64,000 bases of DNA from Adineta vaga (lineage: Eukaryota; Animalia; Rotifera), in the NCBI GenBank assembly GCA_021613535.1, contig CP075495.1, positions 6,696,001 to 6,760,000 of the forward strand. The letters are read 5' to 3'. How positions within the stretch are numbered: the first letter of the stretch is position 1; each line of letters starts with the position of its first letter. This document shows positions 28,721-36,224 of this stretch, piece after piece. The notes under the pieces are model-generated. The model saw only the letters and a list, made by a program, of their open reading frames with translations, was not told the DNA's origin and made no database searches. The translations under genes and the position numbers were made by a program.

Positions 28721-31700
28721 TTAACAAAGACGAAGAAGAATTCTTAAACTGTCAGTACCATTATTTGCAACTGCAACATCCGATTTTCCATCATTATTAA
28801 AATCACCGATCACAGCGGAAAATGGATGAGATCCATAATTCATTGGGAATAGAATTATATTACCAAATGTACCATCACCATATCCAAGAAATATACCTAG
28901 TTTGTTATTATCATAATTAACAATAGCAATATCTACTATTAAATCGTCGTTGAAATAACCAATAGCTACAAAAGAAGGAGATGAAGAGGAACCCGTTGAA
29001 TATTTTGTTATATTTGTAAATAATTGACTATCATTTCCAAGAAGTACACTGATATCATCGGAACCGTAGTTAGCACTAACAATATCAAGTCGACCATCAT
29101 CATTGAAATCACTAGCTGCTATAGAATATGGTTTGGAACTCAAACCGGTTGAATATGTTATTTGGTCTGCAAAAGAAATATTACCATTTCCAAAAAATAT
29201 ACCAATATTATTAGTGCCCGAATTTGCTACTGCAATATCATTTTTACCATCATTGTTAAAGTCGCTAATAATGATCGATCGTGATCGTGAGTTTTCCCCA
29301 GTTAAAAGTGTCGTGTATTTTTCAAATACTTCATTACGACAACCAAATATTATAACAACAGTCTGATCACCTACATTAGCAATAATAATATCTAGTTGAT
29401 CATCACCATTGATATCTGCAACAGCTAAATATTGTGGATTAGAACCCGTTGAATAGGAAACTGGATCTTCGAAAGAACTATTGCCATATCCAAGATATAC
29501 ACTTACACTGTTGCTACCAAAATTGCCGACCACAATATCCAGTCGAGAGTCATTGTTGAAGTCACCCGTAGCCACAATTGATGGGAAAATACCTGCTGAA
29601 TAATATCGTTCGTATGTAAAAGTACCGTCGCCAAGTCCAAAAAGAATATTTATTTTCCTATTACCATAACTAGTGACAACAAGATCTTTTATCTGATCAT
29701 TATTCAAATCAGCAATCGCAAAGCTAGATGGTCTTGGGTCAGTTTCAGATGTTACTGGTGATTCAAATGAACCATCACCATTTCCAAGAAGAACGCTTAT
29801 AGTAGCAGCTAATACATTACTAACTAGAATATCCAGCACAAGATCATCATTAATATCTGTTACTGCGACAAAATACGGAGTTCTACCACTTGGATATGTA
29901 ATATGATTTGCGAATGTGCCGTCACCGTAGCCAATTAATACACTTACAGTACCACTATTAATATTAGTAACAACTAGATCCAATCGTGTATCATGATTAA
30001 GATCACCGATAGCTACACAACTTGGACCAGAATCCGTTGAATACAAGGAGTGATTTGCAAAGGAACCGTTACCAAACCCTAAAAATATGCTGACACTTCT
30101 GTTACCAGTATTAACGACGACTAGATCCAATCGAGAATCATTGTTGAAATCACCCATAGCTACATAGTTTGGTAGAGCACCAGTTGGATATGTTTTTGGA
30201 TCTGCAAAAGAACCATTACCAAATCCAAGAAAAATGCTCACATCTTGAGAATCAGTATTGACAACAACCATATCAATATGACTATCATTATTAAAATCAC
30301 CGAGAACTAGACCGTATGGACGTGTACCAGCTAGATAAGCCGTTTTATTCGTGAAAGATCCAGTATTACGAGTAATGAAAATATCGATACTATCGCTATC
30401 ATCGTATGCAGCAACAACTTCTGATTTTCCATCATAATTAAGATCACCAGAAGAGATGATAAACGCAGGATACATAAAAGCAGTTTGGCGGATTGCTTGA
30501 CTAGTATATAATCCTTGACCATTCCCTAGCAACATTCCAATTTGTTTAGTACCATATGTGGCTACACCAATATCTAAATGACTATCACCATTAAAATCAC
30601 CAATACTAATAGATGACGGCTGTGAGTTTGAGTCCATATCGATCATCATTTGACTTCTAAAATCACCTGTACCCATACTAAAGAGAATACCTACATTATC
30701 TGTACCAAAATTAGCAACAACAATATCAAGTAAAGTATCATTATTCATATCAGCAATGGCAATAAATTGTAATCGAGAACCACCACCAGATGCGTAAGTC
30801 GTTCTATTCATAAGTGCTCCTCTATTATATTGAAATAGTATTTTTACCGAAGCAGTATCATTGTCTGATACAATAATATCCAATCGACCATCGTTATTTA
30901 AATCAGCAACACTAGTAGACAGTGTTCTAGCATTTGTATAATATGATGCACCGTTCTCAAATGAGCCATTACCATATCCGAATAGAGCATATACATTTAG
31001 TGAACCTTGAGTAGCTATAATAACATCAAGTTTAGTGTCATTATTAAGATCATCAATAGCCAAACATATTGGATAGGTACCAGTTCCATATGTAACTTGC
31101 GAAGCAAAGGAACCATTGCCATATCCAAGAAAAATGCCAATATTATTTTTCGCAAAATTAGCAGTGGCGATGTCTAGTCGACCGTCATTGTTTAAATCAC
31201 TAAGAACCATAAAATATGGGGCTGCTGCAGGTAAACGTATCGTTTGATTATTAAAAGCGCCATTGCCATATCCAAGAAAGACGATAATCTCACTAGCATA
31301 ATAATTTGCAACAATGATATCGAGTTGTGCGTCGCTATTGCAATCACCAATAGCTACAGATCGCGGTTGAGAACCAGTTGAATATTTAACTGGTTTATCA
31401 AATGAACCATCAGAATATCCAAGAAATATGTAGATATCATTACTTCCATAATTGACAACAACCAAGTCTTGATGCGTATCGTTATTTAAATCGTTGATAG
31501 CCACTTGTACTGGATTAATACCAGTCGCATAGTTAACCTGATCTTGAAAAGAACCATTGCCATATCCAAGAAAAACGCTAAGGTTATTGCTAACATAATT
31601 GACAACAACTATATCTTGATAATTATCATTGTTTAAATCACTGATCGCTACATGTATTGGCCTACTTCCAGTTGAATAGGTATTAGGATACCGATAATTG

Positions 31701-33484
31701 CCATTACTATATCCCATAAGCACCATCATATTATTACTAACATAATTAACAACAACTATATCCTTTTGACCATCATTGTCGAAATCACCAATAGCCACAA
31801 ATCGTGGCGCAGAACCAACTGAAACTCCTGATGGAGTTGTAAATCCTTCGAAATAACCTGTTAGAACATCTATACTACCAGTGTCATTATTAACAATAAT
31901 AACATCCAATCGATTATCTTTGTTCAAATCAGTAATAGCAAATGAGACTGATGATGAAGATCCCGATGAATTCATACTTGGTTCTGTAAACTCACCGTCT
32001 TTATTTCCAAGAAATAAACCTATATTTTGAAGGCCAATATTAATAAAAAATAAATCCGTGTGATTATCACCATTAAAATCACCAGCACCAATCGCATAGG
32101 GAGAGCCACTGGCGATAAAATAATCGTATTCAGACGTTAGAGTGCCATCACCTTGATTAAGAAATATTTTTATCGTATTTGTTCCATAATTTGTAACGGC
32201 GACATCGAGTGATATATCACCATTAAAATCGCCAACAGCTACTGAAGTTGGATGAGATCCAATGCCAGTTGAAAAAGTGATCTGTTCATCAAAAGTTCCA
32301 TTACGATTTGCAAGAAATAGACCAATATTATCAGTACCATAATTCGCGACGATAATATCTAAGTAGGTATCATTATTAAAATCTGCAACCGCCAATGAAT
32401 ATGGTAAAGAATCATAGCCTGTGAAATATGTTATCGGTTGAGAAAACATTCTATTTCCATATCCGTATAATACACTTATACTATGAGTACCAACATTAGT
32501 GGTAACAATATCAAGAAATGTGTCATTATTAAAATCAGCTAAACTAATGAATGTTGGACGTGACGAATATGTTGATAGTTGCTGTTGATTATCGAAAGAA
32601 CCATTGCCAAATCCAAAAAATAAACCAATATTATTCGTACCAAAATTTGCCACTACGATATCTAATTTTGAATCATTATCAAGATCATCAATAGCAACCA
32701 TACTAGGATTAGAACGAAGACCAGTTGAATATTCCATTTGCTTTGAAAAAGTGCCCGTGCCACTTCCAAAATAAATACCTATTCTATTGACCATAGAATT
32801 GGCAATAACCATATCCGCCCACGTGTCATTGTTCAAATCTCCGACAGCAACAGATCGTGGATCATAATTGTATTCGATTGGATCTTTAGCTGTTGGTGTA
32901 AAACCTAACTCACATTTTGATGCTAAACAAGAAAACAAAGTGATATGAAGGCCATTGTATCTACTTTGATTAATAACTTAGTTAAAATAATTTAAGTCTG
33001 ACACGCAAATACAATAATATCTCCTTTGCATTCTTCTTAAGCGATCTTAAGACAGTTGTTGATCACTGCTTTATATGATTGCAATAGATGTTTACATTTT
33101 TCTTATTTGCTCCAATATTATCTAATTATATCAATTACAGCTAATAGAAAAAGGCATACTTTTTGGTTTTGGTACTGTAACACAAACAATCACTATGCCG
33201 ATTGCCATTAGGATACACATAAATATAATAGCCAAAATTACACGAATCATTGAACTCGATATTATAAAACAAATACATCTTCTAAACAATATAACACAAT
33301 TACTTTTTGTAATTGAAGTGAGAGAAAATAAGACATACACATTCCATGGAGGTGTTGGTGCTAGTTCCGTGACTACGTTCTTCGCATTCGATGCTGATTC
33401 TGACTTTATTTCAAGATCGAAAGGAGATTCTTGGTGATTACTTACTATTTCGACTAGTTCATTACTATTGTTGATAAAATCCAT
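28721..33484 (-). CDS. Giant FG-GAP/VCBS repeat type II membrane protein (~1500 aa)
   Basis: Two short N-terminal exons encoding a TM helix (ORF 33131-33484) splice to a ~4.2-kb exon with more than 20 repeats of the form VAxGDFNNDxxLDIVVxNxGSxxxSVLLGxGxGxF. Confidence 0.9.
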
Positions 33485-35334
33485 TTCAATCTAAATAGAG
33501 ATATCATCTAATTTGAGAAACTAGTCACTACTTGATCATATCGATCAGTAACTGTTACATGTGCCTATCTATTTACATCTGGAAACATACAGGAGTATAT
33601 TCTGTATATAGAGCCTATCCAATTTATTAGACATCTTTGAATCATTGAGTGGAATGATTAGTTAAACTTATATACAACACATGTCACTGAAACGGTAATT
33701 GACGAGATCAATTATCGTCACTATTGAATAGCGCTACACTAATCTAAATCATACATTTCAGTTCCTCATGATATTTTCTATTACATACCTTATTTGCATT
33801 GGTTTTCATTGTTAACTTGTATCCTTCTATTCGCTGACGATGAATAGAAAAATGTTGAACTTGTTAATGAGTGCTTTCTGTGTTCAAAACATTATTGTCA
33901 ACTATTGCATATGAAAAATAAAGAGAAAATATACTGATAGCTTCACAAATTGATTCGATGATTCAAATTTCATGTATTAATGAATAATATACAGATTTAT
34001 CCATAGAATTATTTTGGAAAAAGAAATAATTACTAATTTGATTTTATTAAACCATATCTCATTTAATAGATAATTATCATAGTATATTCCTTTCTTTTTT
34101 TGTACAGCGACTGATACATCGTAGACTAGAAAACTTGTATGTATGAGATTCATTATAAGTCATACGAATATCATCGTGATCTATTGATCACGGCTAGATC
34201 AGAGTTCTATCACTGGTACTTCATTATCTCAGGGCGAAAGAAAAACGCCGTCAGAAAGTTTATACAGAAATAATATGCTACAAAAAGATATAAATTAAAA
34301 TATATTTTGTAAATCTTGATTATTGTACAATTGAATTTTATCGAGTATCATATATCTTTCCTTTTTTTATACGTTCCTAATTTCCGATTGTAATATCTGA
34401 ATTGTAAGAACAAGATAACAAGTTTTATAAAGAATCCGCCCTCTCTCTGCTAACGCCTAACAATTAACACGTCTCATTCAAATATCCTATCACTAATATA
34501 AATCATATGATAAAATTTACCTTTAGAAAAAAACGTTCGCAACGATTAATGTATACGAATGAAAAGATTGACTAACTATAAATATTATAGAAAGTTAAAA
34601 AATAATGACGACGTATATATTTTTTTGTACCTTTACATTTCACTAGTGTCATCCTCTTCGTTTCATTTTGTCCAAATGATAATGAAAGTACATGCATGAC
34701 ATGATATATCTTGACAGTATCGACAATAAACTGTCACAAAATTAACTAATGCTTTTGGCGTCACATTTTACCTTTCCTATTCAACATAACCAAAGGTGGA
34801 TAAATATTTCGATTACAATCCGAAAAACAAAATAACGAATAACACGGGAGAAAAACTAATATTATTAATGAATTTTTTTATTTCGTATACGTAAAGTATA
34901 AAAGAACTATACGTAATAAAATGGTCAATTATTTTCATTGATTGAAATTACATCAGAACCTTTTTTTTATATTATGTTAAGTAAACAAACATTAACTAAT
35001 CATCGTTGAAAGTCTATCTGATCTTGATTTAGAAAAGAGAAATACTAATTTCTTGTTTTCTAAATGATGAATAAGAGATAGACAAGTACATAAATGGTGA
35101 TAATCATTATAAATATATTGATAGATCATGAAGACATTATATCGTCGAAAAACAAAAACAAATTTTCGTCTTTCAATACAAATAGGGAACGTCAATTTAA
35201 GATCAATATTCATATTATTTCACCATATTGATCAAATTTAAGCTACGAACAAAAAACACAAACTTATATACACTAACGAAGCAATTTCGTTGAAGATTAA
35301 TCTTTATAAAAGCACATAAGAACAAATCAAGTAA

Positions 35335-35745
35335 TCAACATCGTATTTCTGACCATGATGGGTCTAGTATTGTTCCAGTAATAGAATAACATGAATTGAG
35401 TAATCCATTTGGAACCTCTACGATGAATATGGATCGATATGTCGCAATAAAAGTCAATGCTTTACATTCTAATTGAGACCAAATAATATCATATGGTATA
35501 TTTAAAGTAGAACATTGAACAACTGGAAATAAACCTGTATCGGATCGATGAATTTGAAGTCCATAACTAAATGTTTGTGCTTCAAGATAACATTTTGCTA
35601 AAAATCCACCTCGATTACAGATACGAACATAACCACCAATTGATATAGTAATATCTAAATAATAATAAATTTATTTAATAAAATCTTGTTTTATACATTT
35701 ACTGATAAAGAAAAGTAGACTAATGATGAGATAATATTTCAACAT
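35335..35745 (-). CDS. Secreted 120-aa protein resembling the stand-alone C-terminal domain 4 of thiol-activated (cholesterol-dependent) cytolysins
   Basis: Exon 1 35745-35703, a 48-nt GT-AG intron, exon 2 35654-35335. Product: MLKYYLIISLLFFINITISIGGYVRICNRGGFLAKCYLEAQTFSYGLQIHRSDTGLFPVVQCSTLNIPYDIIWSQLECKALTFIATYRSIFIVEVPNGLLNSCYSITGTILDPSWSEIRC. Not in the ORF track. Confidence 0.75.
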
Positions 35746-36224
35746 GTTTGAAGAGTAAATTTGATGAGAAATGAAATAGAGATTTTTGTTCGCACAATTG
35801 TTCTTTTAACGTATGTATTTGATTACAAAGTAACAGATGATGATGATGATCGACATCAAAATACAAATTTCATATCAGTTGTGCATTGTAACCTTCGAAG
35901 AGAGTTCATGTACAATGTGTAGAGTTATGTGAAAGTTAAAAATAATCTCGACTCAGTTAACATCCAAGTTTTACTTCGAAATAAACAAAATTAGATAAGA
36001 GCTGTATTGAAACTGTTCTTTTTCTTTTACTGTTATTAATGCGAATGACTCATTCTATCGACATAACGTTGTATTTTTGTTGTCATAAATACACACACGT
36101 TTCATTCTTCTTGTGAAATAATAAATGCAAGGTTGTATCAAACTTATTCCAACGATTTCTTTTGCATTTTACATAATGAAAATGTAATTCACCTACTTTA
36201 ATCATTGTAATAGACAATTCGTTC

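Follow-up and report, generated by a model that had tools for sequence, protein, structure and literature searches.

The window, a 64,000-nucleotide stretch of DNA from the bdelloid rotifer Adineta vaga, contains on its minus strand a gene for a small protein that is a homologue of domain 4 (D4) of the cholesterol-dependent cytolysins (CDCs) and is predicted to consist of a single D4 β-sandwich. The protein is not a CDC toxin. It is one of a family of stand-alone, putatively secreted D4 homologues that has apparently not been described before, and a literature search in which few subscription papers were covered found no D4-only family described in rotifers or other animals.

Gene structure and transcript evidence

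An earlier note on this DNA had proposed a two-exon gene with a 48-nucleotide intron, and the spliced product of this model (Table 1), a protein of 120 amino acids with 6 Cys as counted in that note, is letter-for-letter identical to NCBI entry UJR26543.1 (P0002), "hypothetical protein I4U23_007866" from Adineta vaga. The gene had been called unannotated, which holds for the list of open reading frames but not for NCBI, where it is already annotated without characterisation. The proposed model hinged on a spliced junction across 35655-35702, and a joint from 35654 to 35703, skipping 48 nucleotides and reading CT..AC on the plus strand, is present in contigs of two of eight runs (X3 and X4), both of which come from one study and have an RNA status that is only guessed, no run carrying the gene being recorded as RNA. 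In a contig of one run (X8) the intron is retained. The gene is real and spliced. Besides this, a join from 36197 to 35654 (542 nucleotides skipped, CT..AC, short side of 27 letters) occurs in a single X2 contig of low depth, possibly from a transcript that runs antisense to the dehydrogenase gene, is spliced onto exon 2 and would lack the signal-peptide exon.

Because the N-terminus combines a basic residue with a hydrophobic core (Kyte-Doolittle mean of 3.3 over the best 9 residues), as it does in 8 of 8 named orthologues (9-residue means 2.4-3.5), the protein is probably secreted, in agreement with the signal peptide seen earlier; the signal peptide was called from hydrophobicity.

Table 1. 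Coordinates of the D4-like gene and of its loop equivalents in the window
Feature	Positions	Strand	Description
Probable 5' untranslated region	35746..35793	-	Reached by spliced contigs of runs X3 and X4 (to 35793); contigs cannot reveal the true transcript start
Gene start and stop	35745 (ATG); 35335 (stop codon)	-	
Exon 1	35703..35745	-	43 nt; contains the ATG and the larger part of the predicted signal peptide
Intron	35655..35702	-	48 nt, GT-AG, phase 1, 10% GC
Exon 2	35335..35654	-	320 nt; end of signal peptide, predicted eight-stranded CDC-D4-like β-sandwich with 6 Cys, stop codon
Loop-2 equivalent	35596..35616	-	NRGGFLA (CDCs: HSGAYVA)
Loop-3 equivalent	35521..35532	-	LFPV; hydrophobic, nearly invariant across the family
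Undecapeptide equivalent	35434..35460	-	ALTFIATYR; shortened by two residues and free of Trp, with an almost invariant Phe-Ile where the hairpin turns
Loop-1 equivalent	35359..35376	-	GTILDP; Ile-Leu replaces the Thr-Leu cholesterol-recognition pair
Probable 3' untranslated region	35227..35334	-	Limits uncertain; X2 and X6 contigs pass the stop codon to 35227 and 35242

The predicted fold matches domain 4 of cholesterol-dependent cytolysins

An AlphaFold2 model built on a 41-row alignment contains eight strands and has a pLDDT of 85.9. When this model was compared with known structures by Foldseek, all 27 matches listed among ranks 1-32 were CDCs (E 2e-7 to 1e-4; best E 2.1e-7; TM by query 0.66-0.75) and the first non-CDC fold followed at E 9.2e-4. 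In a VIA-align comparison with 48,161 chains, the top three were CDCs, D4 of pneumolysin being matched with Z 13.1 and an rmsd of 2.6 over 101 residues, and the next-best fold had a Z of 9.3. Similarly, the first 25 rows of a second structural comparison were CDCs, including perfringolysin O (Z 13.1, rmsd 3.1, 104 aligned). The structural match thus spans 101-104 of 105 residues and lies well above unrelated β-sandwiches (Z of the next fold 9.3-9.4 over the two comparisons), bearing out the resemblance to CDC D4 that had been noticed by eye.

Sequence homology to CDC D4 is supported by a profile and by an intermediate link. The broader profile A3 (27 rows) matched D4 of suilysin (E 2.9e-4) and of listeriolysin O (E 2.3e-3), and the phmmer match P0053 (E 2.9e-4) scores 30.2 bits on PF17440, for which the gathering cut-off is 23 bits. 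This cut-off was reached neither by the window protein nor by any of the 41 members of alignment A2. Identity to CDC D4 is only 16-19%, and no CDC was retrieved when Pfam and the PDB were searched directly by sequence, whether the query was the protein itself or alignment A1 or A2. The first match in the ESM Atlas was a mostly bacterial 110-amino-acid cluster in which 17% of members carry PF17440; its score of 0.93 is below the level of reliable recognition and it was taken as a lead. A Pfam match to TSP1 (E 0.07, 16 residues) was dismissed as weak. No viral relatives were found in BFVD (best E 6e-4, TM 0.56), among 50 candidates screened for viral contigs (none) or among phages (none).

Toxin-specific motifs are altered or absent

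The motif register was obtained from an alignment with five CDC D4 sequences, in which ALTFIA--TYR lies over the undecapeptide ECTGLAWEWWR, NRGGFLA over HSGAYVA and GTILDP over GTTLYP. Two spacings, 12 between the invariant Pro and the undecapeptide and 20 between Arg and the Gly of loop 1, are identical to those in 4 of 4 CDC D4s measured, and the register to perfringolysin O D4 that had been drawn by eye is confirmed by these spacings and by the alignments with real CDC D4s. An hhalign comparison of A2 with one CDC D4 (5.5% probability) paired ECKAL with ECTGL; this pairing was discarded, as a strand would have to lose 3 residues (spacing 9 versus 12) and profile A3 and the multi-CDC alignments disagree with it, and ECKAL, three residues before the true undecapeptide equivalent, is a coincidental look-alike.

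The window protein therefore shares with D4 of perfringolysin O, pneumolysin, suilysin and listeriolysin O (PF17440) the eight-stranded β-sandwich (predicted here), the order and spacing of the loops, the G-T-x-L-x-P pattern of loop 1, the Pro and the loop-2 pattern. It differs from them in that the undecapeptide equivalent is two residues shorter and has lost all three Trp, only the Thr, Ala and Arg positions being shared, and in that Ile-Leu stands in place of Thr-Leu; both the erosion of the undecapeptide and the exchange of GTTL for GTIL had been recognised before. Unlike the toxins, it has six Cys, an intron and its own predicted signal peptide, and domains 1-3, whose absence had also been recognised, are missing from the 120-residue product: a scan of the product and of the A2 members for PF01289 gave no match.

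CDC-like (CDCL) two-component toxins are relatives of CDCs that also lack the undecapeptide and the Thr-Leu signature, as far as the available text of PMC7527733 and PMC11169675 goes. They are defined, in the available part of PMC7527733, by domains 1-3 with an F/Y-F/Y-Xn-YGR motif; they keep these domains and have an unrelated binding domain, whereas the window protein is the reverse, with the D4 fold only and no domains 1-3, and is not a CDCL. One subunit of such toxins serves as membrane anchor (PMC11169675, available text), which raises the alternative that the window protein does the aiming for a two-part pore-former of rotifers, with the gene for the pore subunit lying elsewhere, and an Acidobacteriota locus described below pairs a full-length CDC-type gene with a tandem-D4 gene. 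The anchors of CDC-like systems, however, keep domains 1-3 to recruit the pore subunit (same source, available text), the window holds no second D4-like match and none of the nine window ORFs scanned has a cytolysin domain, so that we consider a two-part toxin very improbable.

A rotifer family with variable loop-1 residues

Homologue searches were restricted to near lengths. Paralogue counts are lower bounds. A profile search yielded 41 proteins, all named ones being from bdelloids. A phmmer search against 1.84 billion representatives gave 17 matches, two of which (P0044 and P0047) were excluded as repeat artefacts, and the remaining ones include sequences from Brachionus calyciflorus, Didymodactylos carnosus and the scale insect Parthenolecanium corni. 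In 42 rotifer-type sequences the loop-1 pair is Thr-Leu in 21 (one of them read by eye because the pattern missed it), has Ile at the Thr position in 17, and is Thr-Phe in 3 and Ala-Leu in 1. All 8 of the named species of Adineta and Rotaria have an orthologue with GTI[L/F], and GTTL and GTTF subfamilies exist alongside. Nei-Gojobori dN/dS values of about 0.4-0.7 among four sequences are distorted by AT bias and carry no argument.

In the window, the D4-like gene has as neighbours an EH-domain gene, an FG-GAP repeat gene, a short-chain dehydrogenase gene and a CAP-Gly gene. In three metagenome loci (L001-L003) a D4-like gene adjoins the EH-domain gene (26.2-28.4 kb in the window), and in the one locus that extends far enough, the opposite flank is occupied by the dehydrogenase and CAP-Gly genes. 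Two of the three syntenic metagenome copies have kept Thr-Leu, so the Thr/Ile position toggles within the orthogroup. The intron noted in the A. vaga gene is conserved in orthologues, both loci that include exon 1 (L001 and L002) having a 47-nucleotide phase-1 intron at the same place.

Other features were observed in the vicinity or in related genes. In A. vaga, an FG-GAP/VCBS gene (1418-amino-acid open frame, 25 repeats) and a 119-amino-acid ORF without Pfam match (window 28721-33490) sit between the D4-like and EH-domain genes, and because these two are directly adjacent in L001-L003, about 7 kb looks inserted in A. vaga. The A. vaga protein P0064 (I4U23_018130) is annotated as a Ras-family, Rab-like GTPase fused to a D4-like domain of the GTTF subfamily, probably two neighbouring genes merged by annotation. 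Parthenolecanium corni (P0056, P0076) has at least two D4-like genes with signal peptides on multi-megabase contigs, possibly an independent acquisition.

Among animals, D4-like genes were found in rotifers and in a scale insect, a distribution that might suit a protein scavenging or carrying sterols for nutrition rather than for defence. Insects depend on sterols, and Brachionus is reportedly co-limited by them. Against such a role, D4 binds membrane surfaces and we know of no sterol-enclosing pocket in it, and no sterol-related genes were found around the window gene; a sterol carrier is therefore regarded as improbable.

Free and enzyme-fused D4 modules in bacteria

D4-like domains were also found in bacteria outside toxins. 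P0053, the protein above the PF17440 cut-off, is a papain protease from an Acidobacteriota MAG with four C-terminal D4-like repeats, and P0049 is an astacin-like protease with three such repeats at its C-terminus; the C-terminal position in enzymes is as expected for a targeting module. Stand-alone D4-like genes occur on plasmids of Leptolyngbya and Clostridium (4 and 9 records). Profile A3 was run on 301 genomes from each of four phyla: 3 genomes per phylum matched in two of these and none in the other two, a zero count not showing absence. The six matching genomes contain a papain fusion, a PI-PLC-like fusion, an N-terminal fusion (from Planctomycetota) and three full-length CDC-type genes. 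Some of the bacterial proteins are already named "thiol-activated cytolysin C-terminal domain-containing" at NCBI.

On the C. novyi plasmid pCN1 (L021:991-4700), five small hypothetical genes within 6.3 kb match the D4-like profile (E 1e-19 to 6e-4) and, going by these matches, form an unrecognised tandem cluster of stand-alone D4-like genes. In contig C73 of the Acidobacteriota genome G216 (L016-L019), a full-length CDC-type gene adjoins a gene with two tandem D4 domains, which are closely related to the D4 of the adjacent toxin itself (starred, 100/100). In genome G021 (L017:1480-3225), a PI-PLC-like protein (weak Pfam match, E 8e-4) ends in a D4-like domain, which suggests that D4 may serve there as a phospholipase targeting module.

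The window protein shares with these bacterial modules, which are themselves uncharacterised, a size of about 100 residues, the lack of pore domains, a Trp-poor hairpin, 14-34% identity and the region of the tree. A Cys at the start of strand 7 is present in most non-toxin bacterial modules and a terminal Cys in many, whereas classical CDCs have neither. The main bdelloid clade adds the intron and the four remaining Cys, which are invariant in it and confined to it. Some bacterial modules also have a signal-like N-terminus. The earlier suggestions that the signal peptide and all three disulfides were gained in the animal thus find no support in that form, only four Cys being specific to the main bdelloid clade.

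Origin of the rotifer family

An unrooted tree was calculated over 101 columns from 47 of 52 domain rows, after removal of a truncated row, a near-duplicate and three copies from C. novyi that are strongly divergent. Sixteen bdelloid rows with six Cys group together in a starred clade (99/99), which Brachionus and two other sequences join at 94/91, unstarred. The rotifer group is placed among the non-toxin modules and classical CDCs lie in their own starred clade; the deep branches are unstarred. When rotifers were forced together with classical Gram-positive CDCs, the topology was rejected (AU p 0.009, for a hypothesis taken from the earlier note and a row set picked after the tree was seen), whereas neither grouping with all full-length toxin D4s, corresponding to descent from a full-length toxin of Gram-negative type (p 0.14), nor a single animal clade (p 0.2) was rejected. 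The nearest bacterial relatives found are free or enzyme-fused D4 modules and not pore-forming toxins.

Because the distribution in animals is patchy, a bacterial origin of the rotifer D4 family is probable. The idea that a bacterial module was domesticated by an animal is upheld in this respect, but derivation from a trimmed classical toxin, and with it a sister position to the Gram-positive CDCs, does not agree with the AU result or with the pre-existence of free modules in bacteria. The module would have reached rotifers before the split of bdelloids and monogononts, being already free or enzyme-fused in bacteria.

Domestication of full-length CDCs by leafhoppers has already been published (PMC13670155), and for whitefly there is a gene with the annotation thiol-activated cytolysin (PMC5426028), each as given in the available part of the paper. 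In both leafhoppers and rotifers, bacterial cytolysin genes would have been domesticated by animals, carry introns and have lost Thr-Leu in some copies. According to the available text, the leafhopper CDCs are full-length (490-680 amino acids), nested in Gram-positive CDCs and in some cases pore-forming; in contrast, the rotifer family has D4 only and was rejected as sister to the Gram-positive CDCs.

A conserved docking end and its possible ligands

The loops with which CDCs dock on membranes have their counterparts here in those that follow strands 1, 3, 5 and 7. Across 40 relatives, the mean entropy of the 19 docking-end positions is 0.80 bits versus 1.86 bits for 15 far-end positions, a difference that none of 20,000 permutations equalled, and 8 of the 19 positions are occupied by large hydrophobic residues in more than 90% of sequences, although the difference in hydrophobicity between docking and far loops was not significant by itself (p 0.09). 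As the docking loops are far better conserved than the opposite end, the functional surface would be the one that toxins place on membranes, and as domains 1-3 are missing, no pore is expected. We lean towards the window protein being a secreted, non-lytic membrane-surface binder. It would dock on lipid membranes via the four conserved hydrophobic loops, with LFPV, Phe-Ile and Ile-Leu inserting shallowly into the outer leaflet, and would be held by three disulfides, probably Cys12-47, 21-63 and 88-105 (exon-2 numbering), as deduced from the strand order and the D4 topology.

Alternatively, the conserved hydrophobic patch could be a protein interface, which would also suit a secreted protein rich in disulfides. 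The protein might bind a receptor or partner, or act as decoy for incoming cytolysin monomers, in the manner of intermedilysin D4 with CD59, and intermedilysin-CD59 complexes are among the fold matches. However, the patch consists of the very four loops that CDCs use on membranes, and no evident partner gene is found among the EH-domain, FG-GAP repeat, short-chain dehydrogenase and CAP-Gly neighbours, so that we consider protein binding distinctly unlikely.

For the membrane-binding protein that we favour, a sterol-containing membrane is named tentatively as the most likely ligand. Retention of Thr-Leu in half of the rotifer-type sequences speaks for this, whereas the loss of all three undecapeptide Trp and the replacement of Thr by Ile in all eight named Adineta and Rotaria orthologues speak against it. 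In perfringolysin O, Ile at the Thr position alone lowers activity about 100-fold (PMC11416283); in a selection study, perfringolysin variants that lack Thr-Leu could still act on cholesterol membranes when the surrounding sequence was different (PMC11416283; PMC9057304); and a domesticated leafhopper CDC with a mutated motif has lost cholesterol binding (PMC13670155), all three statements following the available parts of these papers.

The alteration of the Thr-Leu pair in the orthogroup of the window gene might alternatively point to a secreted lectin, in which the D4 sandwich would bind glycans of microbes or of the rotifer surface and the hydrophobic loops would stack on sugars. Lectin activity is known for CDC D4, and the titles of PDB entries for pneumolysin mention sugar binding and a complex with mannose (4zgh, 4qqq). 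The conserved tip residues, however, are mostly aliphatic plus Phe with few polar partners, and the retention of Thr-Leu in half of the family also argues against a lectin, which we regard as unlikely.

Returning to sterol-containing membranes, these would be read less strictly than by the toxins, and the Thr-Leu, Ile-Leu and Thr-Phe subfamilies may each prefer different lipids, serving at the animal surface or in the gut as a soluble sensor, tag or shield.

Implications

D4 is known as the part with which a four-domain toxin docks, and isolated D4 is used as a laboratory cholesterol probe. The present analysis indicates that isolated D4 occurs in nature, in animals as a conserved and probably secreted family and in several bacterial phyla as a module that is free or fused to enzymes. 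Because the rotifer paralogues vary at the supposedly essential residue pair, they offer a direct test of how cholesterol specificity is coded. More speculatively, and with considerable doubt, D4 could be a mobile membrane-targeting module of which the free domain was taken up by rotifers and expanded into secreted, disulfide-locked sterol-membrane sensors, the subfamilies telling host cholesterol from fungal ergosterol or other lipids in a non-lytic form of pattern recognition. If true, this would be a pattern-recognition system built from the aiming part of a toxin and a natural source of lipid probes. Without lipid binding, the proteins would still be an orphan family with a newly assigned fold. 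For rotifers themselves, the D4-like family may point to a membrane-sensing arm of defence or nutrition.
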